Below are positions 20,924 to 37,295 of a DNA stretch of 37,295 nt, piece after piece. The stretch is from contig JAYEHV010000029.1 in assembly GCA_034716495.1 (NCBI GenBank), forward strand, positions 1 through 37,295, read 5' to 3'. The first letter of the stretch is position 1; each line of letters starts with the position of its first letter. A model generated the notes under the pieces. The model saw only the letters and a program-made list of their open reading frames with translations, was not told where the DNA came from and did not search any database. Both the position numbers and the translations under genes were made by a program. The stretch comes from Nanobdellota archaeon (lineage in GTDB: Archaea; Nanobdellota; Nanobdellia; Pacearchaeales; GW2011-AR1).

Positions 20924-20956
20924 TTTTTTCTATTCTTAAAATTTTTTAAAAAAAAA

Positions 20957-23900
20957 TTAAAATTCTACTCGTTTCTTCTTATATTCGGACTCTAAGAGCT
21001 GTAATGCTTGACTAGGATTTAGATTTCTCTCTGTAATGCTAAGTTGCATTGCTTTATTGAAAATGTCTTTTGGCTTTTCATCTGTTCCGGCAATTTTTAA
21101 AGCAATATCCGTGTCTTTGTTGTCCCATGCCCAATTCTGCTGATATTTAAGCGCATTAATTAGCTCTCCCTTTTTCATCCTATGTCGTCCTACGATTTTC
21201 TCTTTCTGTGCTACTTTGTAGATTTGGTTTCTTGTTAGCTCATGTAATTTCTCTGTATGAGGTAATGTTCTAATCGTTGCTTTTGATTCTTTCTGAACGG
21301 CTTTTGGTGCTGATCCTTTAACTAAACCTCGCGCTCTTTTGTGTTGATAAAACTCAGAGGTTTGAAATTTCTCAGCATCTGTGCCTTCGGATCGCTTGAT
21401 AAATTGCTTTACCCAAGCCATTCTATCTTTCTTAGTAGGACATTCACGATCTCCTTGCGCACCATAGAATTGAGGGTATTCGTCTTGAAGTGTAAAATTA
21501 AACGCATTATATTCATTATAGGCTTTTCTTCTCTTTAGAATACGCTCTGCAAATCCTCCAAAATCGTCTTTATATTCAACGATAATAGGTTGTTCTTTTC
21601 CAACGGATACCCTCATAGCACGACCTGCGGTTTGCATAACTGAGATGGGACTATATTCTTGTGATGCCCCAGCACCTAAAATTACATCTAATGCAGGTAG
21701 ATCAAAGCCCTCACTAAGTAAAGACCCTGTGCCAATCGCGATATTTGTTTTTCCCGATTCAAGCATTTTCTTATTAGTTTCAATATCAGATTTCTTCATC
21801 TTTTTAAGTTTTCCGCTCGCATCTCTCTTCTTTCCCGCTAGTAATACTGGTTTAGTGTTTGGATACTCTTTTTCCAATAGTTCTTTTAGATCGTTTGCGT
21901 GATTCAATGATTTAGTGAATATAATGGTCTTTTTCCCTGCTGTATGCATTCTATTTGCGTGATCGATAATCAGATCGTTTCGCGCTTCGTTCTCCTCTAC
22001 TTGCGCTCTTACTTTAGCGGTAAATTTGTTTTTTATTCCATCTCGATCCATGATATAATCTATTTCAGATTCTAAGTCCTTGCGTTTTGGAATAGGAATA
22101 ACAACGACATTAGGTTTCATTAGCATTCCCCTATCTTGCGCTTGTTTGTACGTGATTGGAATCCTTTTATCTCCGATTTTCATAACTCTAAGGATGTCGT
22201 CTTGCGCATCTCTGCTTGGTGTAGCTGTGAGTCCAAATTTATGAATCGTCTTATTTTCGTCATAAACGCTATCAAAGCTTCTAGCTGTAATATGATGCGC
22301 TTCGTCTTGAATGATTATCTCTGATTCTCTGAGTATTTTTAGACAAATTTTATCCTTTTCGCTAAGTGTTTTTCCCTCCTCAATTTTTTTTATTGCACTA
22401 TGCATCCCTTGAATTGTTCCTACATTAATATCTGCTTCATCTGTCCAGCTAGGTGTGAAATTTTCGCTATCTAACAGTCCAATATTTACATCTTCAGGTA
22501 GGAATTTATCAAACGCCTCTTTCGCTTGGTCTCGAAGCGTACCTCGATGAACTAAGAAAAGTGAATCAACATCTACTTTTTTACCCGTTTTCTCTTCGTA
22601 TTTTTCTGCACCTTTTATAAATCCGCTTATAACTCCCGCCGCCATCATGGTTTTTCCCGTACCAGTCGGAGATACAATAAGTCCTTGCCCTTCAATCAAG
22701 CTTTCTAAAACTGCTTGCTTTTGATAGTTATAAAGGTCCACTCCTTTAAGTTCGGGATTGGAGACTGGAGATCGTTCTCTTGTATCTGCTACGGCCACAT
22801 CAAAATTATAGGAACGCTTTAACAACCAATAGGCTTTTGATAATAAGCCAATAGGCATAACATATTCCCCTTTATCGTTAATTTCTACGGCTGCATATAC
22901 CTCATCTTTTTTCCCGCGCTTTGACATCGTTCTTTTATAAGCTGTATTTAGAACATCCATTGCCAATTCTTGATCTTTTCTCTTATCACCTGGATTTTTG
23001 GAACCAGATTTGAGTACGACATTATTTCCATGAACCTCAAAAATAAATGCGTTCGAATCAGAGTGAAGAACAATCTCTTTTTGAATATTTGCTTTCTCTA
23101 ACCATTCTTTTTTAGTGTCGTTTTGACCAACGATAGAATAAAGAAGATCTTCTCTCCCATATCTATCGTTTCTATCTTTAAACTCGTCAATAACGCTTTC
23201 CAGATCGTCAGCATCTATAACAAATTGACTCCCTTGAACCCATCTGCCCCCATGTTTATCTCTAACTACTTGCAAGAAAGTCTCGTAGTTAGCGCCTCTC
23301 ACTTTGTAGTTTCCACCTTCGCCTATGTTATCCCAAGAGAGTAAAATTTTATCTCCGTTTTCGCTAAGTTTAACCATGATTGTAGCGCTTTTAGGGTCTT
23401 CTTTCCCCTTAAAAAATTCTTCGAAAAATGGATTCTCTATTGTTTCTACTGCTCCCTCCTCTTTCTTCAGTTGCTCTAAAGTTTTAAAATTAAACCTGTC
23501 AGCTTCGCTTAATTCCCCGTAAAAATCGTCATGCCAGCCCTCGTTTTCCGCAAGAATTTCATCCTCTACTAAGACTCGGAATATGCTGTATAATCGGTTT
23601 GCTTCTGCTCTTTCGTCTTCGATCTCTTTTTGGATTTTTTCTTTCTCTGAATTATCCTCAGACCACTCATATCTCTTTTGAAGATCGTCTATTGCGCTTA
23701 ATTTCGTGATCCATTGCTTATAGACCTCACTATCTACAAGTTTCTCTTCAATGATAATTCTCTGGATTTCTTTTTGCGAAATTCCAAATAGTTCAGGGTC
23801 TAATACTTCTTCCTGAATCCTCTTTTGAATTTCTTCAATTGAATCCTCTTTTGCCTCCTCGATATCTTCTTTAATAATTTCCTTTACTTCATCTTCGGTG

Positions 23901-24103
23901 ATTAAAGTTTTTGCTTTTCCCTCTTTCACTTGTTTTTTTGCTTTCTCGGAGAGTTCGGGTTTAACATGGACCTTTTTCTTATGGGAGCTTACAGTTTCAA
24001 CCTTACCCCCTTTAACGCGCTTATATTCATCTATCTGGCGCTCTTGGGTAGGATACCATTTAAGAAGGGAAAGTTGAGTTTTTTCTTTGGTTTTTTTTGC
24101 CAC
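20957..24103 (-). CDS. SF2 DEAH-box helicase (ResIII/XPB-UvsW-like core) with long N-terminal extension, shared N-terminal module and C-terminal HeH/Rho_N-like motif
   Basis: 1048 aa, GTG start. Q motif YNYQKQAV. Motif I VSPTGTGKT. Motif II IIQDEAHHI. Motif III GLTATPSR. Motif V LSEGFDLP. Motif VI QTAGRAMR. C-terminal LHELTRNQIYKVAQKEKIVGRHRMKKGELINAL resembles Rho_N/SAP helix-extended-helix. N-terminal YKRVKGGKVETVSSHKKKVHV...EGKAKTLI is the shared module. Confidence 0.85.
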   Translation of the reverse strand: MAKKTKEKTQLSLLKWYPTQERQIDEYKRVKGGKVETVSSHKKKVHVKPELSEKAKKQVKEGKAKTLITEDEVKEIIKEDIEEAKEDSIEEIQKRIQEEVLDPELFGISQKEIQRIIIEEKLVDSEVYKQWITKLSAIDDLQKRYEWSEDNSEKEKIQKEIEDERAEANRLYSIFRVLVEDEILAENEGWHDDFYGELSEADRFNFKTLEQLKKEEGAVETIENPFFEEFFKGKEDPKSATIMVKLSENGDKILLSWDNIGEGGNYKVRGANYETFLQVVRDKHGGRWVQGSQFVIDADDLESVIDEFKDRNDRYGREDLLYSIVGQNDTKKEWLEKANIQKEIVLHSDSNAFIFEVHGNNVVLKSGSKNPGDKRKDQELAMDVLNTAYKRTMSKRGKKDEVYAAVEINDKGEYVMPIGLLSKAYWLLKRSYNFDVAVADTRERSPVSNPELKGVDLYNYQKQAVLESLIEGQGLIVSPTGTGKTMMAAGVISGFIKGAEKYEEKTGKKVDVDSLFLVHRGTLRDQAKEAFDKFLPEDVNIGLLDSENFTPSWTDEADINVGTIQGMHSAIKKIEEGKTLSEKDKICLKILRESEIIIQDEAHHITARSFDSVYDENKTIHKFGLTATPSRDAQDDILRVMKIGDKRIPITYKQAQDRGMLMKPNVVVIPIPKRKDLESEIDYIMDRDGIKNKFTAKVRAQVEENEARNDLIIDHANRMHTAGKKTIIFTKSLNHANDLKELLEKEYPNTKPVLLAGKKRDASGKLKKMKKSDIETNKKMLESGKTNIAIGTGSLLSEGFDLPALDVILGAGASQEYSPISVMQTAGRAMRVSVGKEQPIIVEYKDDFGGFAERILKRRKAYNEYNAFNFTLQDEYPQFYGAQGDRECPTKKDRMAWVKQFIKRSEGTDAEKFQTSEFYQHKRARGLVKGSAPKAVQKESKATIRTLPHTEKLHELTRNQIYKVAQKEKIVGRHRMKKGELINALKYQQNWAWDNKDTDIALKIAGTDEKPKDIFNKAMQLSITERNLNPSQALQLLESEYKKKRVEF

Positions 24104-24150
24104 TTTTTTTTAAACCTCTTTTTTTTTGCTTATTTTCTAGATTTGTTTTT

Positions 24151-24162
24151 TTCTTTATATGT
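24151..24162 (-). promoter_or_regulatory. TATA-like box (ACATATAAAGAA on minus strand) in the 110-nt gap upstream of the helicase gene
   Basis: This is one of the few real intergenic gaps in the right array. The box lies 48-59 nt upstream of the GTG start, with AGAGGT 10 nt before the start. Sequence-only guess. Confidence 0.25.
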
Positions 24163-24213
24163 TTTTAGGTAAATTGTGAAATTCCTTTAAATTTTCTAAT
24201 TTTTCTCATTTTT

Positions 24214-25647
24214 CTATTTAAAATTTGATAGTTTTTTATATTTTGATTGTTCTTTCGCACTTAGGCCTAAATCCATTGCTTTTTCATTTACTCCTGCAAA
24301 TCCTAAGATTCCCTTTTGACTTTGACTTGTCTTAAAGTTCTCTAATGACTTATCTACCACTTTTGACTTATCTACAAAATCTTTAAGTTCAAATGGTTTG
24401 ATTTCTTCTTTTTTACTTTTTTTCATCCCTAAGAACTTATCTAAATCTGTTGTTGGAGATAATTTTAAATGGGATAAGTTATATTCATCGATCCAGGAAT
24501 TATAGACATTAGTTTTCTTTCTGACAAGAGCATCATATTTCTTAATTAATTCTTCGTCTGCGACATCTGAAAGTTCTATTTTGTTGAGTAGTTTCGCCTC
24601 TTGTTCTTTTAATGTAGTATATTGGTGTAGTTTATGAACTGAAAGTTCCCGCCGCCCTCCAATTAGTTTATCGGGATGAGGATCGTCTAATAGTTCTACT
24701 CTAAATTTAGCTTTATCCCAATTTGAAGGGTCTAAGGAATAAGTTCTTACCCCTGTTTCTGCTTCAAATAAAAGCCTACCCGCAGAGTATTTCAATAGTA
24801 ATAGAGGATCTGCAATTAAATTCTTGTATCTTTTATCATTCTTGAAGTAATTATTTATGATCTTTTTGGATAATTGATAGGTAGATATATCAGTTTTAAG
24901 GAATCTTGCTAATTGCTCCGGGTCTTCTATATTCATAATAATTGTTTGAGCGGTCGTTGGAGTTAGGATAAATTCTGGTTTCATTACCTCTAAGTTAGAA
25001 ATATCACCTCTACTAGGTAAGGGAAACATATGATCGGGGTGTGTATGACCAAATAACTCAAAATCATTGAGTTTTAAAGTGTAATCTTTCGCACCTTTCA
25101 TAATGTATAACCGTTCCGGATTGGAATCTTCTCGTTCAAAATCAATAGCAAAACTATATTCATACGGACTAAATCTGGATATCTCCCTAATTCCTTTTAG
25201 CATGTTATAGGGGATCTCCTTTACCATCGTTTGTTGTGGTTTGCTTCTATTCGCAATATTTAGGTCAAATGTGCCCTTTTTTATATAGATTGATTGTTCT
25301 ATAACATCAAGAACCTTTTCTACTTTGTCGTAAGATACACCGTACTCATGATGACCGAGAGGATAATCTTGCATGATGTCTATGATTTTTTTCTCTTGCC
25401 ATACATTAGTCACCACGCCCTCTATACCAGATAGTTTATATTTAACGCGATCTCCATACTCAAACATTTTAGGTTGAATTAATTGTTTGCTGGATCCTGC
25501 TATTCGATTTTTATTTCTTATTTCTCTTGCACTTCTTTCTCGATAACGATAAGTAACCTCATGAGCAGGAACCACCACTACTTTCCCGTTCTTTTTGGTA
25601 TAGGTATATCCTTCTCTTCGCTTCTTTTTATCGTAATAATTAGCCAT
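24214..25647 (-). CDS. JAB/MPN-like metallopeptidase-motif protein with the shared N-terminal module
   Basis: 477 aa. GHTHPDHMFPLPSRGDI (25003-25047) fits the JAMM signature HxH-x(7-8)-S-xx-D, with 8 spacer residues instead of the canonical 7. Candidate upstream Glu in AIDFEREDS. N-terminus KKRREGYTYTKKNGKVVVVPAHEVTYRY...AGSSKQLI. Confidence 0.5.
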   Translation of the reverse strand: MANYYDKKKRREGYTYTKKNGKVVVVPAHEVTYRYRERSAREIRNKNRIAGSSKQLIQPKMFEYGDRVKYKLSGIEGVVTNVWQEKKIIDIMQDYPLGHHEYGVSYDKVEKVLDVIEQSIYIKKGTFDLNIANRSKPQQTMVKEIPYNMLKGIREISRFSPYEYSFAIDFEREDSNPERLYIMKGAKDYTLKLNDFELFGHTHPDHMFPLPSRGDISNLEVMKPEFILTPTTAQTIIMNIEDPEQLARFLKTDISTYQLSKKIINNYFKNDKRYKNLIADPLLLLKYSAGRLLFEAETGVRTYSLDPSNWDKAKFRVELLDDPHPDKLIGGRRELSVHKLHQYTTLKEQEAKLLNKIELSDVADEELIKKYDALVRKKTNVYNSWIDEYNLSHLKLSPTTDLDKFLGMKKSKKEEIKPFELKDFVDKSKVVDKSLENFKTSQSQKGILGFAGVNEKAMDLGLSAKEQSKYKKLSNFK

Positions 25648-25650
25648 TTT

Positions 25651-26871
25651 TTATATCACCAATTTTTTAGGTTTTGGAGGAAGATATTTCCTTACTTCGT
25701 CCTCCGTATAAGTATAATCTTTCAAACACCAAATCCCGCGCTCTATATTTTCAAATAACTCATCCTTATAGCTTGAAAGAGCAGAGCGTATTTTTTTTGC
25801 TTCTAATCCCGTAATTGCCACGATTTTTTGTATATTTACTACACCTTCTTGATGTAAAGCATTAAATATTTTGTCTTTATTCTGTAATGGTTGTAGGCTT
25901 ACTTCCTTTCGAGCAAACTCCCAGTCTAATTGTTCAATCGCTTTTACTAAATCGGTCCGCCTAACTTTTATTGTATAATCTTGCTCTATCTGATTTGCAA
26001 ACGGATATAAGAATCCTTTTAATTGTCCTCTGGTGAAATCACTCACAGAGCATTTTAATCTTTCCAACTCTGTTCGTAATGCATCTTTAAGAAGGCCAAG
26101 TAAAAAGGCTTCATCAATTGACCTATCAATCACTACATCATATTTTACCTGTTCTTTAGAGGAGTAGGGAACTTCAATCGTGGCCGTTTGACCGGTCTTC
26201 GCTTTAGCTAAACAAAATCTTAGAGCGTCAAAATTAAACCCTACTTGACCCTCCCATGTCGCTAATCGTAATAATTCTGATTGTTCTGGAGTGAAAATCT
26301 TATGAAACCAATTTAGATCATAATAACTTGTATAGACTTGTAATATTGAATTTTCTCTAAGAGTCGCATCTAAGCGCGAATATACTTGAACAGCAAAAAT
26401 AAAAAATATTATTCCATTTTTCTCATAAAGATCCTCTAATACATGCCTCGAAACACAGAATTGTTGTGTAATTTCGACATTATCCCCTGACATAGACCTT
26501 CGTGAATCTGTACCTTCACCAATAGCATCATCTACTACAATAACTAATACATGCTTACCCTCAAAATATTCGCTATATCGCTTATCGCCAATCACGCGCG
26601 GATCATTGGTTGCAACTACACTAATTAATCCTTCATAGTCAGGAATAGAGCGGAGTAATTCTACTAAATATCGGATTAAAACAGACTTGCCCGTCCCCTG
26701 CCCTCCTATAAAGGACATTGCTTTTAGAACCCATTCGTGAGGAGTATTCTCACATTTGAGAATATGTAATAATAATTCTTTGGGGTTTAATACCTCGTAA
26801 TCCTTCCCATTAACATTGATATTATGAGTGTTTAAAAATGGATTTTTACCTACTTGAACGAATCCTGGTAT
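25651..26871 (-). CDS. P-loop NTPase with C-terminal wHTH; N-terminus extended to an apparent ATA start
   Basis: Walker A GGQGTGKS and Walker B HVLVIVVDDA. C-terminal NIQKIVAITGLEAKKIRSALSSY is wHTH-like. The track start (26718) lies 5 residues before the P-loop. The frame is open for 52 more codons up to the TAA at 26877-26875, with no ATG/GTG/TTG. ATA at 26871-26869 is the second codon after that stop and lies 6 nt after GAGTGA. Confidence 0.65.
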   Translation of the reverse strand: MPGFVQVGKNPFLNTHNINVNGKDYEVLNPKELLLHILKCENTPHEWVLKAMSFIGGQGTGKSVLIRYLVELLRSIPDYEGLISVVATNDPRVIGDKRYSEYFEGKHVLVIVVDDAIGEGTDSRRSMSGDNVEITQQFCVSRHVLEDLYEKNGIIFFIFAVQVYSRLDATLRENSILQVYTSYYDLNWFHKIFTPEQSELLRLATWEGQVGFNFDALRFCLAKAKTGQTATIEVPYSSKEQVKYDVVIDRSIDEAFLLGLLKDALRTELERLKCSVSDFTRGQLKGFLYPFANQIEQDYTIKVRRTDLVKAIEQLDWEFARKEVSLQPLQNKDKIFNALHQEGVVNIQKIVAITGLEAKKIRSALSSYKDELFENIERGIWCLKDYTYTEDEVRKYLPPKPKKLVI

Positions 26872-26877
26872 TTTTTA

Positions 26878-27495
26878 TCACTCTCTAACTTTTTGTTTTT
26901 TTTTATCAAAAATACCATGTTTCTTTTTTAATAGAGGATCATTTGGCATAAGCGTATCTTCGTCAAGTTTGCTCATTGCATCTGCATCTGCACCAACTTG
27001 TGCGTTATAAGGGATTCCATATTTTCCACAGTTCTTAAGAAATGTATTTCTTCTTTTCTCAGCTTTATTTATGAGATCTTGCTTTCCAATATTAACCGAA
27101 TGTAATTGATATATTAATTTTTTTAGCTCGATTAGTTGGTCCTTTAACGGTTCAAAACCTTCCTTTCTAAATTGGATGAATTTTGGAGAATTTTCACCAA
27201 GTTTTTCTTTTGCTTGTGTAATATTTGTATAATCTATATCATCTAGTTTTCTTTCTAATTGTGAGATTGGTTTGAAAACTTCACATGTAGTATTATGGCA
27301 AATCTTTAAATCAACAATAGACCTTTTCAGTAATTTGAATCTATTTAATATATCTCGATCTTCATACCATTTATCTTCTATCTCGTTCCAAATATCACCT
27401 CGCGGAATTAATTCCTCGATCGTTTCTGATAATTCTTCAATCTTTTCCAATGCTTGTTTGAGTTGTTTTGCTAATACTTCAGGATCTTCTTCCAT
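26878..27495 (-). CDS. Coiled-coil protein, function unknown
   Basis: 205 aa. Heptad-like Glu/Lys/Leu-rich sequence. Confidence 0.6.
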   Translation of the reverse strand: MEEDPEVLAKQLKQALEKIEELSETIEELIPRGDIWNEIEDKWYEDRDILNRFKLLKRSIVDLKICHNTTCEVFKPISQLERKLDDIDYTNITQAKEKLGENSPKFIQFRKEGFEPLKDQLIELKKLIYQLHSVNIGKQDLINKAEKRRNTFLKNCGKYGIPYNAQVGADADAMSKLDEDTLMPNDPLLKKKHGIFDKKKQKVRE

Positions 27496-27496
27496 T

Positions 27497-28723
27497 CTAA
27501 CCCCCCTCTAATTCGTCTCTGATTACAATTTGGTTGAGTTTTTTAGCGTCTCCATTACCGCCGAGCTTTTCTTTGAGTATATTATTCTCAGCCATTAGAT
27601 AGTTCATCTGATTCCTTAATTCTTGTGTGTCTTCGCTATTTTGAGCTAAAACTTCACTTATTATTGTCTTGATTTCTTTGTCCTCTCGTTTTCCCTTAAA
27701 CGCGGTTGAAAGTATTTCTGCGTAAGTATCGGGATGCATCACACTAGCTTGATTTACTTTTACTGCCATATCTCCTAATTTCGAATTGAAATTTCTAAAC
27801 ATTTCGGCAATTTGGTCTCTAGCTTGGTTATATTTCTTATCCAATTCGATGTATTGCTTGGTTATTTTAGCAACTTTTAGGTCCATTAAACTTTTGAGAT
27901 TGTCAATGTGCGGTTGTTTTAGGATTGCTTCGTTAAGGTTTCTGGTTTTTATAATCTTGTGTTTAAAATGAGTTGCTTTAATGCTTCCCGTCTTTACATT
28001 TTTGTCTCGCTTTAGATCTTCTATTTCAAATAGAGTTAGGTTTTTTGCTTTTCTTTCTTTAACAATCATACCCTGTTTCTCGTCTATAATTTTCTTTCTG
28101 TAGGTCACCTTTTGAGCAACCGTTCTAATCCGATCAAATAATAATTGATGTTGTAGAGTGTGGATTTTGTTTATTAAAATGGGATTTCCATCATTATCCA
28201 ATTTATCTTGAAATTCTATCGTAAGATATAGCTTTCTGGAAATGCTCGTACTTGGAAGAATTGCGCTTAATATCCTATAAATTACGTATTTAGCTGTATT
28301 AGATTTGGATTTAACTCGTTCTTGTTCTGGGAATTTTAGAGAATCATCTAATTTTGTTTCACGATAAATTATATCGGAGAAATACTTCAAGATTCCAAAC
28401 GAGAGATATGTATGATCTCTAACTTCAGTAAAAGAATATTTACACCTGACAATATTTATTTGATTATGTTTAAACATCAATTTCCAATAATTTGGGAAAT
28501 CTGGATCTTTTTCTTGGGATACAAAACGACCTAAATATATACTTTCTCCATTCTCATCTTTGAAATAACAATAAGGCGATAATGCAACTCTCCAAATTCT
28601 TATAATCATTAAGGATGTAAAAGCCGAGAATAACCAAATAAAAATAGGATTAGCGTTAAACCAATCGAAGATTTGTAATACAAAATCTATTGGTGCGAAT
28701 GTAGGATCATCACTAAATATCAT
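27497..28723 (-). CDS. N-terminally membrane-anchored coiled-coil protein
   Basis: 408 aa. One hydrophobic helix near the N-terminus (PIFIWLFSAFTSLMIIRIW), with long helical Lys/Glu-rich C-terminal stretches. Confidence 0.65.
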   Translation of the reverse strand: MIFSDDPTFAPIDFVLQIFDWFNANPIFIWLFSAFTSLMIIRIWRVALSPYCYFKDENGESIYLGRFVSQEKDPDFPNYWKLMFKHNQINIVRCKYSFTEVRDHTYLSFGILKYFSDIIYRETKLDDSLKFPEQERVKSKSNTAKYVIYRILSAILPSTSISRKLYLTIEFQDKLDNDGNPILINKIHTLQHQLLFDRIRTVAQKVTYRKKIIDEKQGMIVKERKAKNLTLFEIEDLKRDKNVKTGSIKATHFKHKIIKTRNLNEAILKQPHIDNLKSLMDLKVAKITKQYIELDKKYNQARDQIAEMFRNFNSKLGDMAVKVNQASVMHPDTYAEILSTAFKGKREDKEIKTIISEVLAQNSEDTQELRNQMNYLMAENNILKEKLGGNGDAKKLNQIVIRDELEGG

Positions 28724-28727
28724 TGAT

Positions 28728-29042
28728 TTAAGCCCCTCCGATTAATTGAAAAAGTAATGCTAAAAGATCTTCCCAGTCTCCCAGAATCCATGAAAACCAG
28801 AATATAAACAATCGTTTATTCATTTTATCTATTCTAAAAATGCTTACGGGGATTGTTTCGTAATCCACAATATAGAAGAATGCAAATAATGTAGAGAATA
28901 TTAATCCTATCCCCCAGTTTTGAATAATAGTTTCGGGATTCAAGACAAATAATACCTGTGTTATAAACGAAAACATTATTGCATACAATACCGCATAGAC
29001 AACATACCTAACCTTTTCATTAAACTCTTCTCTTCTTGACAT
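28728..29042 (-). CDS. Small membrane protein (about 3 TM)
   Basis: 104 aa. YVVYAVLYAIMFSFITQVLFVL, GIGLIFSTLFAFFYIV and LFIFWFSWILG. Confidence 0.6.
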   Translation of the reverse strand: MSRREEFNEKVRYVVYAVLYAIMFSFITQVLFVLNPETIIQNWGIGLIFSTLFAFFYIVDYETIPVSIFRIDKMNKRLFIFWFSWILGDWEDLLALLFQLIGGA

Positions 29043-29069
29043 ATTTTTTTCATACCTCTTTTCTTTTTT

Positions 29070-29597
29070 TTATTTTCCTTTATTTAGATTTATATAATAT
29101 ATTTGAACAATCATACTCACTATGAAAAATAAGAATAGAAACTCCATAATGATATTTTCTGGATAGATTAACCACCATAACAGCAATATTAAGAAATAGA
29201 TTAACCATAAGATTGTATAGTTAAATATCTTATACCCTTTAATTTTGATTGATGCGAGTTTCTTTCCTACAATCATCATACAAACCGGAGCTACAATTCC
29301 AAAAATTATTGTTGTGTAGTCTAAAGCATCAAGATCAGACAAATTCACGAATCCTTCAAATATACCTAATGACCATAGAGAATATAGGAAGAATAGGATA
29401 TAAATAATGTATTTTAAGATCTTTCGTGTTCTTTTCTCTCGAGAATCTAATATTGAACCTAATGTGAGTGTCAGCATTGAGAAACTATAGGTTCTAATCA
29501 GCGAGAATGACGAGACATAGACTATCCAAATTATTAATAAAAGCATTAATGATAAAAATACATACCTAAGCATCTTTGCTGAATGTTGTGGGTTCAT
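29070..29597 (-). CDS. Multi-pass membrane protein (about 5-6 TM)
   Basis: 175 aa, almost entirely hydrophobic segments separated by short basic loops. 4-nt overlap with the upstream gene. Confidence 0.65.
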   Translation of the reverse strand: MNPQHSAKMLRYVFLSLMLLLIIWIVYVSSFSLIRTYSFSMLTLTLGSILDSREKRTRKILKYIIYILFFLYSLWSLGIFEGFVNLSDLDALDYTTIIFGIVAPVCMMIVGKKLASIKIKGYKIFNYTILWLIYFLILLLWWLIYPENIIMEFLFLFFIVSMIVQIYYINLNKGK

Positions 29598-30196
29598 TTT
29601 TTCTCACCTATTACTTTTATCCTTATAAATTCTATTACTAATTCTGATATTAAAATGAAACTATAGAAAAACACGAAAAAGTTTATATTACTATCGAGCC
29701 CTATACTTGACGACAGATTTAAAATTATTATATTAAAGTAAGATAGCGTGAGGAGAACTAAGTAGAAAACTAAATATTGAATTATAGAGATTATAAAAGA
29801 GCGAACGATTAAGGTCCTTACAGGTAGGATTTTCATTACAAAGTAGCGAATAATCTCTACTACAAAATCTAATATTAATATAATAATAAAAAAGACCATA
29901 GCTAATTCTCCTGTAGTAAACACTTCTTGGTTAAAACGAGTAACATAAAGCATGGCAATCCCTAATCTCTCTACCATAAATAATAAGCTTAAAAATAATA
30001 GCGTCTGAAGAAATGCAAAGAATAATATTCTCATTGTAGTATTAATCGTTTTTTTACTCGCAAATTTGAAGAATAGAAATAGCCCTACGATAACTAACAC
30101 TCCGATTATTGCCCAGATCACATAAAAACTCCAGAATAACACACTTAAAATCGGTTCTACAAAAGCCCTAAATATATCCGTTAAAATGTTTGACAT
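29594..30196 (-). CDS. Multi-pass membrane protein (about 6 TM)
   Basis: 200 aa. Repeated 20-25-aa hydrophobic stretches. Starts 5 nt after the stop of the giant gene. Confidence 0.65.
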   Translation of the reverse strand: MSNILTDIFRAFVEPILSVLFWSFYVIWAIIGVLVIVGLFLFFKFASKKTINTTMRILFFAFLQTLLFLSLLFMVERLGIAMLYVTRFNQEVFTTGELAMVFFIIILILDFVVEIIRYFVMKILPVRTLIVRSFIISIIQYLVFYLVLLTLSYFNIIILNLSSSIGLDSNINFFVFFYSFILISELVIEFIRIKVIGEKK

Positions 30197-30201
30197 TTTT
30201 T

Positions 30202-33200
30202 CTATTTCCTCTTTCTCTTTTTATCTTTTTTTTTCCAAAATTGTAATTTCTTTAGGGATTCGGGTTTCGTTATCCCATAATAAATGATAACAAAGCCAAG
30301 TAAGGCCGCACCGGCGGGAATTAATAACCAAGCCGCATCCCAAATAACTAGTTTCTCAAATTCTATCCTTATTACATTAGTACCTTGTGCTAAATTGAAA
30401 TCAATTACTTGATAATAATGAACCCCATCAAGATCGTAAAGTTTTATATGAGTTAGAAATTCGCTAGGTGTTGAAATAGCGTTTAACTTGATATTTTCTT
30501 CGCTCTGAATGTAAAATTCAAGATTAACATCGTAAGCAGGATAATTACAAACGATTGTATATTCTACATATCCAGAGCCTTGTACTCTTTCAATTGAACT
30601 GATAGGATTTGTTTTAACTCTTAAATACGAGCTAGTGATTGACGAATCAAATCCAGAACATACAAAATAACCCTCACCTACACCATAATAATTCGTTCCG
30701 TAATGAACACCATCTAATTCCCAGCCCTCATCAGTAGGGACGATCCACGATTCAGAATATCTTTCATACTCTAAATACACATTATAATATTCGCTTAAAG
30801 TCTGGTAATTGCTTTCCGTAATAGTGAATGCGCCCTCGTTAATATATTGACTGATATTAGCGGTAGGGATTGAACTATTACCGTTTATGGTGAAGGATTG
30901 TACGGACGTGCTAAAAGAAATATTAGGAATTTCGAGATTATAAGTTTGAGAGGATTGAATAGCACTTAAACTCCAATTGTCCATATATACGCCATCGGAT
31001 CTAAGGGGAATTACGATGGTGACATTCTCTAATATTATATCTGACATGTAATTCACCCGAACTTCCGAGTATGTACCGTTATTTTCCAAAACTTCGTATG
31101 TAAGATTATAGTTTGGATTCACATCAAGTATGGCCTCGAAAAGATCGTTTATTTCTGTTTTTTGAGATAAATCAAACTTGTACTTGTCATTCTCAATAGT
31201 GAAATCATTACCAGAATAAATCGTTCCTGTTCGTAAATGTTCCATTTGATTGACCTCATTAATATCAAGATCTCCAACAAAATACCAATACTTATAATCC
31301 AATTCTGCTAGGAATAACTCACTAACTAAAACACTTGCCGTATCTGTTCTTGGTGTATTTGTAATTTGGGTTCTTGTTCTTAAATTATCTAAATACCTTA
31401 GTTGAACAGAGAAAGTATCCAAATTAACATAGGTAGAACCAATAAGAGATAAGATTTCGAGAGAATCTGAGTTAATATCATAATTGTAATTTGTACTTTG
31501 AGTTCCATCAAAATAATAATATGTGAAATTGTCAGGTATGTTTGTTAAATTTGCGCTATTAAAAGTTATAAATGTGAATGGAGAGCTTTTCTGAGTGAAA
31601 CTAAAATCGTAATTAACATAGTCAGAATAATCTACTGTCTTATTGATGTATAAAGAGGCATTCTCGATAAGTAAGTCAAATGTTAGCGAGCCCGCATGAT
31701 CTATAAGTAAGTCAAACGAATTTGCCTCAGTCTTATTTATTGTGAGGAGATTATTACTTACATTTACACCATTTACAGTTAAATTTACCAGACTTGAGTT
31801 AGTCACCACTTGAATAATTGGTAGAACCTCAAAACTCATAAGTTTCCAAGCGCCCATGTAACTCTCTGCTGTATCGTTAAACGAACAATTTATATGGTAA
31901 AATCCTTCGGTCCAGGTGATATTCATCAAAATATCAATATCGATCTCTCCTAATGCATCTGTAGTTGAAGATGTATTTACGAAAGTAATATTGTTGTGGT
32001 CGTAGATCGTGTAATTAATCGGTTTACCTTGGATTGGTTGATTATAAAGGTCTCTAAGCGAAATAGTTAAGTTTAGACTGGCATCTTGATCATAACTACT
32101 TTTTAGATTAATAATGTCCATGATTGTAGTCCTCTGAATATGGCATAAGTTAGTTATATTCATCCAATACGTATCGTTATACTCGTCTATCACTTTTATA
32201 CTTACATTATAGACCGTTTGAACGGGATAATTAATTGTAAAATTAAACTCGTATTGATAAAGAGGATATGTATCATTGTTGTATTCTTGAATGTAATCTG
32301 TGGAATTGTCGTAATATATCTCGATAATAGGTGCTGAGGACAGAACATTAAAATTTACAGTATTATTTGTATTTATGAATACAGGATTTTCATAACCAGC
32401 GGCTAGAGAAATACTTGGAATAACTGTATAATTTACGGCCCATAGTTCCCAATTTCCATGCGTATCAAAGAATTGTAATGTGAGATTATACAATCCAGAG
32501 GTTGTATTCCAGAAAGAAACGCTCTGAAGTGTATTGTTAATTAACGTTTCGTTGAAGATTACATTGGTTTGAGAATTTAGAGTCTGGTTTATTTCTACAT
32601 TGGAGATATATCGATCAGTCGCATTCCAGTAGATTGTTAAATTTTGATGCGAACCTAACAATGTATCGTCAATATAACAGTCATTTACATTATAGAAATC
32701 GCTATCAAAATCCCATAAAACCATATCATCGAAACTGACTTCACTTGGATTGCCGGCTAAATAAACCTCAAAATAATAGTCTAAAAATGTAGTTTTTGAA
32801 TTATTATTGAGGAAATCTGTTATGTTAAATGTGAGATCGCTACTAAATGACGTATTAGTAGTAAAATTATATATTAGCCATCCATCCTCACACTCCACCC
32901 CGATCCTATATAAAAACAATGAGGAATTAATAGAATTAGTAAAATTGTAAATTAGATAATCCGAGCTTTCTGTAAAGTTCATACTCCAATTCAAGATCCA
33001 ATTGCCTCTTGTTTTCTGCAAATAATCAATACTAAATACAGGATCAATTTTGAAATATTGATAAATTTCATTCCCCCCATAAAGATTTAAGCACTCAAAC
33101 GTAATAGTATAGTTCATATCTCTGATCTCTATAAGCCCATTAGTTATATTAAATATTAGATCAAAATCATCTACATCTGTGCTATTAAACTGAAAATTGT

Positions 33201-36200
33201 AATGACATTCAGCCCAATCATCCTCCCAGCTATAATCAATCGCATCCATATAGAAATGATATTCCTCCGCAACATCAGACATAATATAGAACTGATCAAT
33301 TCCATCAACGCTGGAATCATCAAACCCCAGATCTTCACCCTTCAGATCGCCATCAATCCAGAGATCAAATGTGTCTGTTGCAGTTGTAAAGTTGATTTTT
33401 ATATAATACCATTGGTTTGCAGAATAACTCTCAATCTCATGGTCTGAAGACCCGTCATCATAATAGAGCTTGCCATCATCTTGCCACTCCAAGCGCGGTC
33501 CATAGTTGGAATCATCAAGCAAAGAGACGGTAGTATCCTCGGTTACACTCTCAAAATAGATATAGAATGAGACGATCCCTGACGATGTATCGAGAAAATT
33601 GCTAAACCAAATCCCCTGCCCTGCGTTATTATTATCATTAAAGTCTAATACATAATCATGATTGTCCTGCTCTCTAATAACACTTACCTCACAATCTCCA
33701 TCGCCATCATTTCCCGTGATAAAAGAAATGTCACCTTCAGTTAGTCCTAATTCATTGAAAAAACTATAATCTGCAAAATAACTATTATTAAATCGGGCCA
33801 TTGATGATGTAAAATTCAGATATTCCTCGAATAAGTATTGAAATTCGATAGAAATATTATACAATTTCTGATAGTCGTCAAATCCCGTATCATAATGATT
33901 GAGGAATGAGAAATCCAATGTTTTATTAAGTGTAGTGTAAATATTTACTGAGCTAGTCCAATTAAGCGTAATATTAAATAAATCCAAATAAATATTAAAG
34001 AGAGATGTAGAATTAACAGCCTCAAACCTAAATAGCATATCGGATGTAGAATTGTAATGAGAGCTATTGAAAACAAACACACTTTCGTAAAAGCTTTGAT
34101 TATTATAGCTCGAATTAATTAAATCCCATCTAAGCTCATTAAAATTATATACACTCATATTTACTTCTTGATATATATCAGTTTTTGATGAGTAGTTTAA
34201 TTGATAATTATGCATATTAAAATCATTTCCTAAATTAATTGTAGTTGTAAAGTTGACCTCAACCGAGTTATTTAATAGATTATCTCCTATATCGTAATTA
34301 GGATCCCAAGAAAATCCAAAAGCATCATAATAATGATGATAATTTAAATGTCCAGTAGCGCCTGTCAGAATAATCTCTTGAAACTGAGTCCAATCATTTG
34401 AGTTAGCAATATCACTATCAATCAAAACACCATCAACATAAAAATCGTATGTATCTGCTGTATAATCAAACACTATTTTACAATGATACCAAGTATTATC
34501 CACAACATCAATGGCTTTAGTCCAACCACCACTATGCTCATAATCCATCTGTTCTGATTCTATTCTAATTCTCATACCTAACGTTGTATGAGAACCATCA
34601 TCATAAAATCTTATTCCTGAATAGAATGTAGCATCATCAGTTCTCATCCACCACTCAATTGTATCTCCATCCGTATTATGAGTTGAAGCATCAACATAAA
34701 AAGCTGCTGGTTTTCCAGCATTAGATGTATCATGAATATCTAAAATTTTATTATGTCCTCCTAAATCAGCAATTATTTGAATTGAACCATGAGTCTCATC
34801 TACAGTCCATCCCGCAGGATCACTATTATCAATATCAGTTGTAAAACTATATGTACCCTTATATGTACCAAACGCAAATGTAGAAGCATTATTGCCTCCT
34901 ATATCGTAATTTTCATCCCAATTCTCACCCCAAGCGTCAAACCATTGGCTTTCTGTAGTATCTCCCCAAGTACCATATCTTATTTTATTGATTCCAGTAA
35001 CCTGATTACTTTCCATGCTATACCCATCTACTTCTAGGACATTATCCAACCATATATCAAAGGTATTATCAGAATACCACTCAACTTTAATGTGATACCA
35101 TTGATCGTTATTAAATGTAGCAAAATCATCCCACCCTGCTGGTGGATTTACAGTACCAATTTTATTAGCATTTGTAAGCCTTATTCTAAAACACATTGTT
35201 GCATCCTCATACCAATGTATTGTCGGATATGGATTATTAGCTAAATTTTCAGCTCTCCACCAATATTCTGTAATTCCACGGTTATGATTTGTATCAAAAT
35301 TATGAGACCAATCTGGATCTTCTCCAGCAGTAGCATCATCTGTGTGTTGTAAAACTTCACTATGACCGTCTAACTCTGCAATTACTTCACTACCACCATC
35401 ATAGGACGTTTCCGAATCAATAAAATCAATGTCCGTTCCCGTCTCTCCAGTTTCTCCAGTAAAAGAATAGGTTGCGTTATAGAGTCCTTCAACCTCAGAA
35501 ACATTAAAAGTAGAATAATCATCGTCTAACATTCCTAATGTGCCATTATCTACTTGGGTGCCATTGGTCATTACAAAACTCGAATTTGAAGGGATTAATG
35601 ACTTAGTAAAATTGTTTAGTTCTGATGTTAGAGTTATATTATCTTTCGATGCTAAATATTTATTATCTCCAATTTCATAATAAGGGTCCCAACTGAATGC
35701 CAGAGCATCTACATAATAATCCATAATATTTTGAACAGTATTAGTTGTGATGTGTATCTGAGAGACATCATTATTATTTTCTAATGCATAATTTCCATGT
35801 TCTACATCATCTATAAAGATTCTAAATTCATTTTGGGATAGACTCATATATCCATTTGACGTTCTTTCAAAGTCTATTCTGATATGATACCACACATTAT
35901 CCGTAATTGCTTGTACCGAATGCCACGCTCCTCCTGAACGTATATATATGTGATCAAGGGATACCTTAATTTGAAATGCGTTATTTCCAAGAGAATCCTC
36001 AAAAAAATAATTATGCCAAGAAGCAGTATTTGTACCTCTTAACCAAAATTCAATAGTTCCAGATTGTTTGTTATCATTTAAATGATGTATAATATCACAA
36101 GCACCCGGATTACCCCGATCATAAAAATGAAGCACTTTTTTATGTCCATCAATTGATTCTACAAGTCCTACGTAAGTTCCACTCCCAGAATCATCTATAT

Positions 36201-37281
36201 CTATAAAACCTATATCTGTTCCAGTTTCTCCTATTATATCATTCATAAAATTATTTGTCGCTGGATAATACCCAGATACATTATATTTAGTAGTTGAAAA
36301 AGTTGAGTTAGAATTAATACTCCAATTATACCAATCCTCTTCATGATACTCATTTGGAAACTCATTAACCATTGTGAGATTATCTCCAAAATCGTAAGTG
36401 TTATTATAATAGCTTGGATAGGAGTCTAAGGTCATCTCTCCCGTAAGAGAGTCAAACCCCTCCGAATAAACATCTTCATACCCCGACCCGCCATGCTCAT
36501 CCATTTTATACGCTAATCCATTCTGTTGATACCAATATTGACTCCATGATACATCTTCATTGGAAATATCTGGCCCATAAAAACCGTAATCACTAATATC
36601 GTGAGAGCCGTTTGACGTATAGTCAGGAAGGTAATTTAGGTCAGAAAATTGTAAGTCCATCCAAGCTAGATAAAAATCGCTTGGTAATTGAATAAAAAAG
36701 TTATAATCTTTTGTTTTGTCATCAAAAAACGGATCTGAGGTCGTTCCCGATAAATATAAATCGAAAGCACCAGAACCTAAGCTATTATAGTAATATTCCA
36801 ATTGTTTGTAAATGTCCTCAGCTAAATAAACCTCTAAAATAAAAGTCTCCCCAATGTTCATAGTAATATCAGGATTGATTGAATGATTTGTACCCGAAAA
36901 AGAATATTGAATGGAATTTAGCCAAACACTCTGAGGTACAATGTCCTCAGCGAACGTAATGTGACCAATAAAGATCGCACGGTCAGACTCTAAAGTGAAT
37001 GAGCTACGCAAAACCCTTCTACTAATTATCTCCAATTCTTTAGCAAACGTGAAACTCGTTTCTGTTTCCATTTGAAACCTTAAGTCTTGGTCTGCGGTAA
37101 AGCTTAATGAACTTGGAAACGAACTTAAAATATCTAAATACCCACTTTTAGGCCCAAGCGGTAATATATCATCGCCATTTAGTTGAAGGTTATATTCTGT
37201 AGGAGAACACCATTGAATACCGCTATAATCCACTCGGAATGAGATGTTTGTAAATGTAATATTAAACGGAATCTCAAACAT
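30202..37281 (-). CDS. Giant sequon-rich surface/spike-like protein with four LamG/ConA-like domains and a C-terminal TM anchor (possibly 5'-incomplete)
   Basis: 2359 aa from the first ATG. The frame is still open from 37282 to the window edge, there is no SD in the 14 nt available, and the N-terminus does not look like a signal peptide. Four repeats of the LamG_3-type pattern W-Y-H/Y-x-K/R-I...F-x-[IL]-[WFY]-[ILV]-D-[DGN]. Very many N-x-S/T sequons. Asn/Tyr/Ser/Thr/Asp-rich beta-type sequence. C-terminus AAWLLIPAGAALLGFVIIYYGI followed by a Lys/Arg tail. Confidence 0.85.
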   Translation of the reverse strand: MFEIPFNITFTNISFRVDYSGIQWCSPTEYNLQLNGDDILPLGPKSGYLDILSSFPSSLSFTADQDLRFQMETETSFTFAKELEIISRRVLRSSFTLESDRAIFIGHITFAEDIVPQSVWLNSIQYSFSGTNHSINPDITMNIGETFILEVYLAEDIYKQLEYYYNSLGSGAFDLYLSGTTSDPFFDDKTKDYNFFIQLPSDFYLAWMDLQFSDLNYLPDYTSNGSHDISDYGFYGPDISNEDVSWSQYWYQQNGLAYKMDEHGGSGYEDVYSEGFDSLTGEMTLDSYPSYYNNTYDFGDNLTMVNEFPNEYHEEDWYNWSINSNSTFSTTKYNVSGYYPATNNFMNDIIGETGTDIGFIDIDDSGSGTYVGLVESIDGHKKVLHFYDRGNPGACDIIHHLNDNKQSGTIEFWLRGTNTASWHNYFFEDSLGNNAFQIKVSLDHIYIRSGGAWHSVQAITDNVWYHIRIDFERTSNGYMSLSQNEFRIFIDDVEHGNYALENNNDVSQIHITTNTVQNIMDYYVDALAFSWDPYYEIGDNKYLASKDNITLTSELNNFTKSLIPSNSSFVMTNGTQVDNGTLGMLDDDYSTFNVSEVEGLYNATYSFTGETGETGTDIDFIDSETSYDGGSEVIAELDGHSEVLQHTDDATAGEDPDWSHNFDTNHNRGITEYWWRAENLANNPYPTIHWYEDATMCFRIRLTNANKIGTVNPPAGWDDFATFNNDQWYHIKVEWYSDNTFDIWLDNVLEVDGYSMESNQVTGINKIRYGTWGDTTESQWFDAWGENWDENYDIGGNNASTFAFGTYKGTYSFTTDIDNSDPAGWTVDETHGSIQIIADLGGHNKILDIHDTSNAGKPAAFYVDASTHNTDGDTIEWWMRTDDATFYSGIRFYDDGSHTTLGMRIRIESEQMDYEHSGGWTKAIDVVDNTWYHCKIVFDYTADTYDFYVDGVLIDSDIANSNDWTQFQEIILTGATGHLNYHHYYDAFGFSWDPNYDIGDNLLNNSVEVNFTTTINLGNDFNMHNYQLNYSSKTDIYQEVNMSVYNFNELRWDLINSSYNNQSFYESVFVFNSSHYNSTSDMLFRFEAVNSTSLFNIYLDLFNITLNWTSSVNIYTTLNKTLDFSFLNHYDTGFDDYQKLYNISIEFQYLFEEYLNFTSSMARFNNSYFADYSFFNELGLTEGDISFITGNDGDGDCEVSVIREQDNHDYVLDFNDNNNAGQGIWFSNFLDTSSGIVSFYIYFESVTEDTTVSLLDDSNYGPRLEWQDDGKLYYDDGSSDHEIESYSANQWYYIKINFTTATDTFDLWIDGDLKGEDLGFDDSSVDGIDQFYIMSDVAEEYHFYMDAIDYSWEDDWAECHYNFQFNSTDVDDFDLIFNITNGLIEIRDMNYTITFECLNLYGGNEIYQYFKIDPVFSIDYLQKTRGNWILNWSMNFTESSDYLIYNFTNSINSSLFLYRIGVECEDGWLIYNFTTNTSFSSDLTFNITDFLNNNSKTTFLDYYFEVYLAGNPSEVSFDDMVLWDFDSDFYNVNDCYIDDTLLGSHQNLTIYWNATDRYISNVEINQTLNSQTNVIFNETLINNTLQSVSFWNTTSGLYNLTLQFFDTHGNWELWAVNYTVIPSISLAAGYENPVFINTNNTVNFNVLSSAPIIEIYYDNSTDYIQEYNNDTYPLYQYEFNFTINYPVQTVYNVSIKVIDEYNDTYWMNITNLCHIQRTTIMDIINLKSSYDQDASLNLTISLRDLYNQPIQGKPINYTIYDHNNITFVNTSSTTDALGEIDIDILMNITWTEGFYHINCSFNDTAESYMGAWKLMSFEVLPIIQVVTNSSLVNLTVNGVNVSNNLLTINKTEANSFDLLIDHAGSLTFDLLIENASLYINKTVDYSDYVNYDFSFTQKSSPFTFITFNSANLTNIPDNFTYYYFDGTQSTNYNYDINSDSLEILSLIGSTYVNLDTFSVQLRYLDNLRTRTQITNTPRTDTASVLVSELFLAELDYKYWYFVGDLDINEVNQMEHLRTGTIYSGNDFTIENDKYKFDLSQKTEINDLFEAILDVNPNYNLTYEVLENNGTYSEVRVNYMSDIILENVTIVIPLRSDGVYMDNWSLSAIQSSQTYNLEIPNISFSTSVQSFTINGNSSIPTANISQYINEGAFTITESNYQTLSEYYNVYLEYERYSESWIVPTDEGWELDGVHYGTNYYGVGEGYFVCSGFDSSITSSYLRVKTNPISSIERVQGSGYVEYTIVCNYPAYDVNLEFYIQSEENIKLNAISTPSEFLTHIKLYDLDGVHYYQVIDFNLAQGTNVIRIEFEKLVIWDAAWLLIPAGAALLGFVIIYYGITKPESLKKLQFWKKKDKKRKRK
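30271..30336 (-). other. C-terminal transmembrane anchor of the giant protein (followed by a 22-aa basic tail)
   Basis: aa 2316-2337 AAWLLIPAGAALLGFVIIYYGI, then TKPESLKKLQFWKKKDKKRKRK. Tripartite layout: small-residue motif PAG, hydrophobic helix, basic tail. Confidence 0.7.
33217..33759 (-). other. LamG/ConA-like domain 4 of the giant protein
   Basis: aa ~1175-1355: GDCEVSVIREQDNHDYVLDFNDNNNAGQG...VSFYIYF...WYYIKINFTTATDTFDLWIDGDL...MDAIDYSWEDDW. Confidence 0.6.
34282..34869 (-). other. LamG/ConA-like domain 3 of the giant protein
   Basis: aa ~805-1000: HGSIQIIADLGGHNKILDIHDTSNAGKPA...IEWWMR...WYHCKIVFDYTADTYDFYVDGVL...YDAFGFSWDPNYDIGDN. Confidence 0.65.
34897..35484 (-). other. LamG/ConA-like domain 2 of the giant protein
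   Basis: aa ~600-795: GETGETGTDIDFIDSE...VIAELDGHSEVLQHTDDATAGE...TEYWWRA...WYHIKVEWYSDNTFDIWLDNVL...FDAWGENWDENYDIGGN. Confidence 0.65.
35662..36264 (-). other. LamG/ConA-like domain 1 of the giant protein
   Basis: aa ~340-540: GETGTDIGFIDIDD...LVESIDGHKKVLHFYDRGNPGA...IEFWLRG...WYHIRIDFERTS...FRIFIDDVE...VDALAFSWDPYYEIGDN. Confidence 0.65.
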
Positions 37282-37295
37282 TAGCGAAATATTCT

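Follow-up and report, generated by a model that had tools for sequence, protein, structure and literature searches.

The question raised by this locus is what kind of membrane machine is encoded by seven closely packed genes at one end of contig JAYEHV010000029.1 (assembly GCA_034716495.1, filed under Nanobdellota archaeon). The window, which is the whole stretch of DNA that was analysed, is 37.3 kb in length (37,295 nucleotides) with a G+C content of ~32%, and almost all of its open reading frames (ORFs) lie on the minus strand with little spacing. A first-pass annotation, made from the letters of the sequence, had described the seven genes as a candidate envelope, vesicle or DNA-transfer module made up of a giant spike-like protein, three multi-pass membrane proteins, two coiled-coil proteins and an NTPase. 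On the evidence set out below there is somewhat better than an even chance that these genes serve particle formation in a mobile element of uncultivated Asgard archaea; the element would most likely be a virus that is assembled at a membrane and does not lyse its host. A reading as a virus is supported by the conservation of the module in other contigs, the remote homology of its ATPase, the layout of the genes, the traits of the adhesin, the mobile-element context and the Asgard signal.

A gene order shared by mobile elements

The seven ORFs are all on the minus strand with the ends first given for them, and they are as tightly packed as was claimed, with successive gaps of 5 nt, a 4-nt overlap, 27, 4, 1 and 6 nt. 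In the direction of transcription they encode the giant protein, membrane proteins of 200, 175 and 104 amino acids (aa), a 408-aa protein anchored at its N-terminus, a soluble 205-aa protein and the NTPase (Table 1). The limit drawn for the block at 25651 does not hold, as the next gene begins 3 nt downstream and the operon continues. Scans of all block proteins against Pfam, PHROGs and NCBIfam gave almost no matches, and it remains the case that no capsid, portal, terminase or tail family is recognised in these scans.

The same block was found elsewhere. Contigs of relatives were recovered from JGI, ENA, Logan and NCBI assemblies through matches to the NTPase or the giant protein, and were compared by BLAST and hidden Markov models (HMMs). 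About a dozen contigs from metagenomes show the core order giant, 175-aa, 104-aa, N-anchored 408-aa, 205-aa, NTPase, although the NTPases that they encode share no more than 30-58% identity. A scan of JGI metagenomes gave only 7 loci, several of them among the contigs already recovered. The related contigs, referred to here by L numbers, are 2-80 kb in length and carry small genes without known function along with genes for integrase, MCM-like helicase, PCNA, methyltransferase and Fic; a tyrosine integrase lies near the module in two relatives and an MCM-like helicase in one. The window itself has, beyond the block, two PCNA genes and genes for DEDD exonuclease, radical-SAM, Zn-finger and winged helix-turn-helix (wHTH) proteins, with an SF2 helicase of 1,048 aa downstream of the NTPase.

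Further genes are seen upstream of the giant gene in the relatives L053, L054, L055 and L056, the window contig ending before the corresponding region. Among these four loci are found a beta-helix protein (Beta_helix/NosD), proteins of 560-670 and ~175 aa, and also the tyrosine integrase and the MCM-like helicase. The beta-helix proteins are presumably tailspike-like. L053 has two additional weak paralogues of the NTPase family.

The host of the element is indicated by two of its genes. One PCNA, encoded at 12988..13818 (minus strand), has 60-65% identity to PCNAs from 35 genomes, practically all of them Asgard archaea and most of them Promethearchaeota, which suggests a gene recently captured from the host, whilst the second (4766..5515, minus strand) is far more divergent and matches only PCNA_N at E 3e-4. 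Two homologues of the giant protein are annotated in metagenome-assembled genomes (MAGs) of Hodarchaeota. The identity of the PCNA and the MAG homologues together link the element to the Asgard archaea, and within them to Promethearchaeota and Hodarchaeota.

The NTPase and its relationship to viral ATPases

The last protein of the block has a Walker A motif GGQGTGKS and a Walker B motif VVDDA, and in an AlphaFold2 (AF2) model (pLDDT 77) a beta-hairpin at the N-terminus is followed by an ASCE P-loop core, then by a lid of three helices and, at the C-terminus, by a winged helix (residues 331-394, pLDDT 85-89). Both the P-loop and the wHTH that had been annotated are therefore present, but the gene does not have the ordinary start that was given to it, as there is no ATG, GTG or TTG at its 5' end and the reading frame reaches a canonical start codon only with the ATG at 26718, which would give a protein of 355 aa. 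Homologues begin MPGY..., which aligns to IPGF in the window at the ATA codon 26868-26870, and conserved residues are found upstream of M52. Judging by this alignment the long form is probably real, with the ATA as its non-canonical start. This ATA could be a non-canonical start as such, the site of reinitiation after termination, or the result of an ATG-to-ATA change in the window copy. The frame of the NTPase continues that of the 205-aa ORF, with only TGA TAA between the two (26868..26880); readthrough or a fusion of the two was considered and rejected, since two different stop codons intervene.

A search of 5.8 billion proteins gave 13 close relatives of 38-58% identity, none of which is named, and a profile search of 1.84 billion cluster representatives gave a family of 149 clusters at 50% identity. 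The NTPase had no tblastn match among the records of phages and archaeal viruses in GenBank, and its profile had none among PDB sequences. Profile comparison with hhalign, for which an alignment of 91 family members was used, gave 94.9% for B251 of SSV1 (E 4.6e-8), 90.2% for ORF16 of His1 (E 1.6e-6) and 69.9% for VP8 of HRPV-1, the last of these being a profile-dependent value that is considered further below. Controls put through the same procedure gave 4.8% (M13 pI), 9.6% (PRD1 P9) and 4.7% (the core of the SF2 helicase of the window). The homology covers ~115 core residues, in which the motif after Walker B, DSRRSMSxxNVxxSQ in the NTPase family, aligns with DKRRHMTNENVKFSQ of His1. In fold searches of BFVD the first match is an unnamed protein (E 9e-10), the second is a protein of an uncultured archaeal virus and the third is A0A514K377 of a Nitrosopumilus spindle-shaped virus (Thaspiviridae, E 3.7e-6), with A32-like ATPases found only at lower ranks. 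From these comparisons it is concluded that the NTPase is related to the B251/ORF16-type ATPases, remotely but specifically.

The relationship is certainly not a close one. Identity to the known spindle-virus ATPases is <20%, the NTPases of the Asgard elements are 400-535 aa in length compared with 250-310 aa for those of spindle viruses, they have an extra N-terminal beta-hairpin, and a family signature (DSRRSMSxxNVxxTQxxxxxRH) sets them off from the B251 and His1 ORF16 types, so that the 149 clusters make up a large group of their own. In the literature the spindle-shaped viruses have two signature genes, of which the B251-type ATPase is one, and this ATPase is also part of the module of pleomorphic viruses.

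When the PDB is searched by fold instead, the best matches of the NTPase are Orc1/Cdc6 proteins (2qby_B and 1w5s_A, E ~2e-5), with RuvB, ORC subunits and RFC also found and a Zot domain as a weak match. It could thus be argued that the locus holds two adjacent things, an NTPase that is a replication initiator of the Orc1/Cdc6 or DnaA kind and, upstream of it, an unrelated cluster of surface-adhesin genes. The top PDB folds (E ~1e-5), the succession of a core, a lid and a winged helix, which is that of initiators, the DnaA-like annotation carried by SSV1 B251 and His1 ORF16 themselves, and the presence of the SF2 helicase among the downstream genes are all in keeping with this. However, TM-scores to Orc1/Cdc6 are just ~0.25, and the window protein has no Pfam match to ORC, Cdc6 or DnaA (nor to HerA/VirB4/FtsK); across the family ORC-CDC6-like was matched by 2 of 91 members at 1e-4, FtsK weakly by 2 of 91 and DUF87 by 1 of 91. 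Furthermore, the NTPase stays beside the 205-aa type at the end of the cluster although the replication genes of the relatives vary (helicase, MCM-like, or none nearby), and the corresponding ATPase of HRPV-1 is annotated as a virion protein, VP8. An initiator beside an unrelated adhesin cluster is therefore thought unlikely.

The type of ATPase also bears on the other possibility raised by the first-pass annotation, an archaeal apparatus for DNA transfer or secretion, Ced- or conjugation-like, with an adhesin of its own. Whilst polytopic membrane proteins and an ATPase in one operon are what such an apparatus would need, the ATPase groups specifically with virus ATPases and is not of the HerA/VirB4/FtsK type (compare the 9.6% of the PRD1 P9 control), no HerA/VirB4/FtsK-type gene is present in the window, and neither is a VirB4, VirD4, relaxase or pilin family. 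This alternative fails on the type of ATPase and is given hardly any weight.

The giant surface protein

The giant protein had been placed at 30202..37281. The ATG at 37281 has no in-frame stop upstream of it, the frame being open to the end of the window, and the window copy of the protein has no signal peptide, whereas the full-length homologues P0160-P0163 (2,404-2,695 aa) have signal peptides at their start. The visible ORF of 2,359 residues is thus truncated at its N-terminus by the end of the contig. The claim of a C-terminal anchor does hold, with a single transmembrane (TM) segment at 2310-2338 followed by a basic tail; this and the other TM calls for block proteins are from a Kyte-Doolittle hydropathy scan.

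Its first 1,360 visible residues contain 3-5 lectin domains of ConA/LamG-like type, with Pfam matches to Laminin_G_3, to a Sialidase-like CBM and, weakly, to Big_1. Three domains are closed by the motif WD(P/E)xY(D/E)IGxN, and a matching repeat is carried by the DNA. The number of NxS/T sequons is 81 compared with 38.8 +/- 5.4 in shuffled sequences, an enrichment not seen in the cytoplasmic proteins of the window. The protein is read, from these features of its sequence, as a putative adhesin in the form of a secreted, glycosylated and membrane-anchored lectin array.

The last 609 residues gave an AF2 model that is poor overall (pLDDT 59), in which ~260 membrane-proximal residues are confident (pLDDT 80-90) and form beta-sandwich domains followed by the TM helix. 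Foldseek searches of the PDB with this model matched ribophorin I/Ost1, integrin alpha legs, complement MG domains and a haloarchaeal S-layer protein, which would seem to be matches between generic beta-sandwich stalks, and no viral spike or fusion protein was among the PDB fold matches of this pLDDT 59 model. In this model (ma6d54ec9e5c8; residues encoded at 30205..32031, minus strand) the best PDB folds for the membrane-proximal part are ribophorin I/Ost1, at E 8.5e-6 but with a TM-score of only ~0.15. Ribophorin I and Ost1 are subunits of the eukaryotic oligosaccharyltransferase, and Asgard archaea encode ribophorin-like proteins, so that a host origin of the stalk is conceivable.

A surface protein of this kind might be expected in an ordinary S-layer or adhesin cluster on the chromosome of an Asgard archaeon. 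The resemblance of the stalk to ribophorin I and S-layer folds is consistent with such a cluster, as are the homologues in Hodarchaeota MAGs, one of which is on a contig of 79 kb. Yet a pattern scan with tblastn across 185,579 species genomes (GTDB) turned up no NTPase relative, every related contig is 2-80 kb with mobile-element-like content such as the integrase and MCM-like helicase, and the genes of the window are nearly all on one strand and tightly packed. The outcome that the first-pass annotation had set against its own reading, a block of ordinary chromosomal surface genes with no mobile-element context, is thus not what was observed, and a chromosomal surface cluster is very improbable.

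Membrane, anchored and soluble proteins of the block

For the proteins between the giant protein and the NTPase the hydropathy scan agrees with the topology that was first proposed. The three multi-pass proteins are as described, with ~5 TM segments in the 200-aa protein, ~4 in the 175-aa protein, and in the 104-aa protein two hydrophobic helices and a third that is amphipathic. The 200-aa protein has a homologue only in the closest relative, L004, and, like the 205-aa protein, matches no family in Pfam, PHROGs or NCBIfam. Homologues of the 175-aa protein directly follow the giant gene in L001-L004, L009 and L053-L056.

The 104-aa protein has an invariant NWGxGLI turn between its two hydrophobic helices, its amphipathic helix is C-terminal and it carries no sequons. 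Its homologues are found in L001-L004, L009, L056 and L053, in the last of which it is fused to the 175-aa type. By its size and hydrophobicity it is a candidate for the major membrane or coat protein of a particle.

Two coiled-coil proteins had been annotated, and for both the topology stands better than the coiled coil. The 408-aa protein has the N-terminal TM segment (25-46), and its coiled coil is marginal only, a crude heptad test giving 0.64 for residues 278-327 against a shuffle maximum of 0.54 +/- 0.07. The 205-aa protein is soluble with 0 TM segments, as is the NTPase, and shows no heptad signal; it has a conserved Trp and a CxxxxC motif, and its type is directly upstream of the NTPase in most relatives.

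A further membrane protein probably belongs with these, to go by its position in relatives. Of its 571 aa the C-terminal ~360 form a soluble domain, and the N-terminal part is a membrane domain with several passes. Its gene is 7 kb downstream of the module in the window, whereas in L001 its type is between the 205-aa type and the NTPase, and in L053 and L054 shortly after the NTPase. The conserved soluble domain has the invariant motifs DAETP, GIIKLP, DGDxDY and WD(Y/F)S, and searches of Pfam, NCBIfam and PDB sequences gave no match to the protein. That it might have an enzymatic role, with glycans or the cell envelope as its target, is speculation.

Comparison with known archaeal viruses

The outline of the block had been likened to pleolipoviruses in gene order and topology only, a comparison that is partly supported. 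The order and topology do agree, as HRPV-1 has VP4 (C-terminal anchor), ORF5 (TM), ORF6 (2 TM), ORF7 (N-terminal anchor) and the soluble ATPase VP8, and the block presents the same series, with the 408-aa protein in the position of ORF7 and the NTPase closing the structural cluster as VP8 does. The likeness to archaeal viruses is not, however, confined to gene order, because the NTPase is remotely homologous to their ATPase, whilst the spike and membrane proteins are without detectable homology to VP3 or VP4. The giant protein shares the type-I topology of VP4 but is built of lectin domains, has no detectable sequence similarity to VP4 and is, as was noted at the outset, several-fold larger, at ~five times the HRPV-1 spike. 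A homologue of VP3 was not found by phmmer or hhalign, and the region upstream of the giant gene, which is the place of VP3, is beyond the end of the contig. There is also a difference in scale, with >37 kb in the window compared with a genome of 7 kb for HRPV-1.

The wyrdviruses of Asgard archaea, which were compared by their description only, have an adhesin gene, five conserved genes without known function and a soluble AAA+ ATPase without TM segments. This is the same count and order as in the window block, and in the same host superphylum, and many Zn-finger genes are common to the two; PCNA has been reported in other Asgard elements. The wyrdviruses differ in having His1-like hairpin capsid proteins of ~80 aa, none of which was detected in the window or its relatives, and in an ATPase reported to be closest to filamentous-phage pI, the comparison of the window NTPase family with M13 pI giving only the 4.8% of the control.

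With spindle viruses the block shares the B251/ORF16-type ATPase, which has a C-terminal DNA-binding domain in both, and a terminal adhesin, this being alike in topology only (signal peptide in the homologues, C-terminal TM segment and basic tail), as the giant protein has no sequence similarity to SSV1 VP4 or His1 VP27. Their hairpin capsid protein is ~70-100 aa; the conserved protein of 104 aa also has two hydrophobic helices, but with a third helix, no sequons and no sequence similarity to His1 VP21 or SSV1 VP3. Searches by phmmer with VP21, VP27 and ORF26 of His1, VP3 and VP4 of SSV1 and VP3 and VP4 of HRPV-1 gave no hit (E<=1) among all ORFs of at least 40 aa in the window and 15 related loci, and hhalign of the 200-, 175-, 104-, 408-, 205- and 571-aa families against the structural proteins of His1, HRPV-1 and SSV1 (SSV1 VP1 left out) gave at most 4.3%.

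The size of the giant protein does have a precedent, since DNSV-1 and DNSV-2, spindle viruses of Nanohaloarchaeota, have an adhesin gene of >1,900 codons with carbohydrate-active domains and also encode an AAA+ ATPase and a tyrosine integrase (bioRxiv 10.1101/2025.02.15.638363). The DNSVs differ in that two hairpin capsid proteins can be recognised in them and their adhesin includes a glycoside-hydrolase domain, where the window has lectin domains and no recognisable capsid protein, and their hosts are unrelated to the host group of the window element. Packaging of the Varidnaviria type is not matched, with 9.6% for PRD1 P9 and no jelly-roll capsid family in Pfam or PHROGs. The verdandi-, skuld-, wyrd- and fylgjaviruses and NMV1-3 are set apart by their descriptions, having recognisable capsid proteins or being described differently, and no mention of the module or of the related contigs was found in the literature searched. 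The element is read as a member of a new family of Asgard mobile elements, probably viruses.

Several points count against calling it a virus. No block protein is detectably related to a known capsid, matrix or spike protein of spindle or pleomorphic viruses. The match to HRPV-1 VP8 depends on the profile, being 69.9% with 91 sequences but 3.7% with 13 sequences and 7.4% with distant members. B251-type ATPases are also carried by pL6-family plasmids and satellites, and their function is a proposed one. One relative is on a 79-kb contig of a Hodarchaeota MAG. Pattern scans of IMG/VR with the NTPase and its alignment gave no relative, so there is no independent viral classification, and the element is known here from its genes alone.

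Some of these points would suit a plasmid rather than a virus, with the module making specialised membrane vesicles that ferry the plasmid between cells, for which the haloarchaeal plasmid-vesicle systems are a precedent. Membrane proteins dominate the module, no capsid protein can be recognised and the same type of ATPase is found on the pL6-family plasmids and satellites. Sequence alone cannot separate such a vesicle from an enveloped or pleomorphic virus, but the layout is the same as in the bona fide viruses HRPV-1 and the wyrdviruses, and some relatives have, upstream of the giant gene, the Beta_helix/NosD proteins that are presumably tailspike-like. A vesicle-borne plasmid is considered quite unlikely, somewhat more so than the replication initiator discussed above.

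Neighbouring genes and other features of the window

Table 1. Coordinates, strand and basis of the features of the block and of its downstream neighbours.
Feature	Position	Strand	Basis or remark
Giant type-I membrane glycoprotein, candidate receptor-binding adhesin/spike	30202..37295	-	Cut N-terminally by contig end
200-aa polytopic membrane protein, ~5 TM	29594..30196	-	Hydropathy; no family match
175-aa polytopic membrane protein, ~4 TM; module core	29070..29597	-	Hydropathy, homologues
104-aa hydrophobic protein; module core	28728..29042	-	Helices, homologues
408-aa protein, N-terminal TM 25-46, helical C-terminal half; module core	27497..28723	-	Hydropathy, homologues
205-aa soluble charged protein	26878..27495	-	0 TM; no family match
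P-loop NTPase with C-terminal winged helix	25651..26871	-	Motifs, AF2 model, profiles
Four co-directional genes directly downstream of NTPase	18891..25647	-	477, 1,048 (SF2 helicase), 133 and 471 aa
571-aa membrane protein, beyond the coordinates of the first-pass annotation	16996..18711	-	In module of relatives

The four genes that directly follow the NTPase are likely to be functionally linked to the module. Their products, encoded at 24214..25647 (477 aa), 20957..24103 (the SF2 helicase), 20522..20923 (133 aa) and 18891..20306 (471 aa), share a basic N-terminal domain of ~50 aa with the consensus Y.R.K.GK.E.VS.H.....VK...l......I..GKAK.L, which has no match in Pfam or PDB sequences. With an iterated HMM the domain was found in 9 proteins of L004, 5 of L012 and 5 of L002, always at the N-terminus, and it is also seen in L005 and L001. 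It may mark the proteins for binding to DNA or for uptake into a particle.

The 477-aa protein has, at residues ~170-215, a motif like that of the JAMM/MPN+ metalloproteases, DFERE...FGHTHPDHMFPLPSRGD, which is of the form E...HxHx8Sx2D. The motif is kept in the L012 homologue as FGHTHPARKEPNPSKAD and is undetected by Pfam.

Between the module side and the small-gene side of the window is ~1 kb of non-coding, AT-rich DNA (15936..16995) within which the GC and AT skews switch sign and where only short imperfect repeats and palindromes are found; it is a possible origin or regulatory region. Beyond it, the ORF 14804..15730 has a unit of ~23 nt (TTTTTGATGAGTGGTCATCAATCT) in tandem at 23-nt spacing in 15307..15504, with another copy ~106 nt off. 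Its protein has a repeated DDHSSK(K/R) peptide, a wHTH-like N-terminus and no family match. Nothing informative came from scanning the window for tRNAs, Rfam families or bacterial promoters and terminators, and no terminal repeats or circular overlap were found in it.

A proposed course of assembly

If the block is the morphogenetic module of a non-lytic virus, then from the topology and homology of its proteins we infer the following series of events. The giant protein would be exported by its signal peptide, which is present in the full-length homologues only, would be heavily N-glycosylated and would be held in the membrane by its C-terminal helix, so that its arrayed ConA/LamG lectin domains are displayed on a stalk of beta-sandwiches and it acts as an adhesin for host recognition. 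The 175-aa and 104-aa proteins, and here also the 200-aa protein, would populate the host membrane and become part of the membrane or coat of the particle. Two further proteins, the N-anchored one of 408 aa and the soluble one of 205 aa, might then connect this membrane to the machinery that handles the genome. The NTPase would grip the DNA of the element by its winged helix and use ATP to drive the loading or extrusion of the genome into the nascent particle, a function suggested for it by its homologues, since spindle-shaped and pleomorphic viruses have been proposed to use their B251-type ATPases in this role. The particle would be released without lysis.

A bolder version of this would make the element the founding member of a new family or higher taxon of Asgard viruses, with a particle that is not recognisably a spindle or that of a pleolipovirus, a lectin-array glycoprotein of 2,400-2,700 aa, novel small membrane proteins and 4-9 tagged but otherwise unrelated proteins per genome. 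Here the ~50-aa tag would send the SF2 helicase, the JAMM-like protease and others to the genome or the particle for delivery into the next host. In so specific a form the proposal is a tentative one and unlikely, though a little less so than an initiator beside unrelated adhesin genes.

Significance

Very few viruses of Asgard archaea are known, and this host group, the closest known archaeal relatives of eukaryotes, is central to ideas on the origin of the eukaryotes, and the module described here defines a further group of Asgard mobile elements. It follows the design of an adhesin, membrane proteins and a B251-type ATPase that is thought to be ancient in archaeal viruses, with all its remaining components novel, and it extends this design to much larger genomes and adhesins. 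The ATPase family, with its 149 clusters at 50% identity, provides a marker by which further such elements may be found, and the shared N-terminal tag is a testable lead on how these elements target their proteins. The giant protein, rich in lectin domains and sequons, hints at the recognition of glycans on the poorly understood cell surface of the Asgard archaea.

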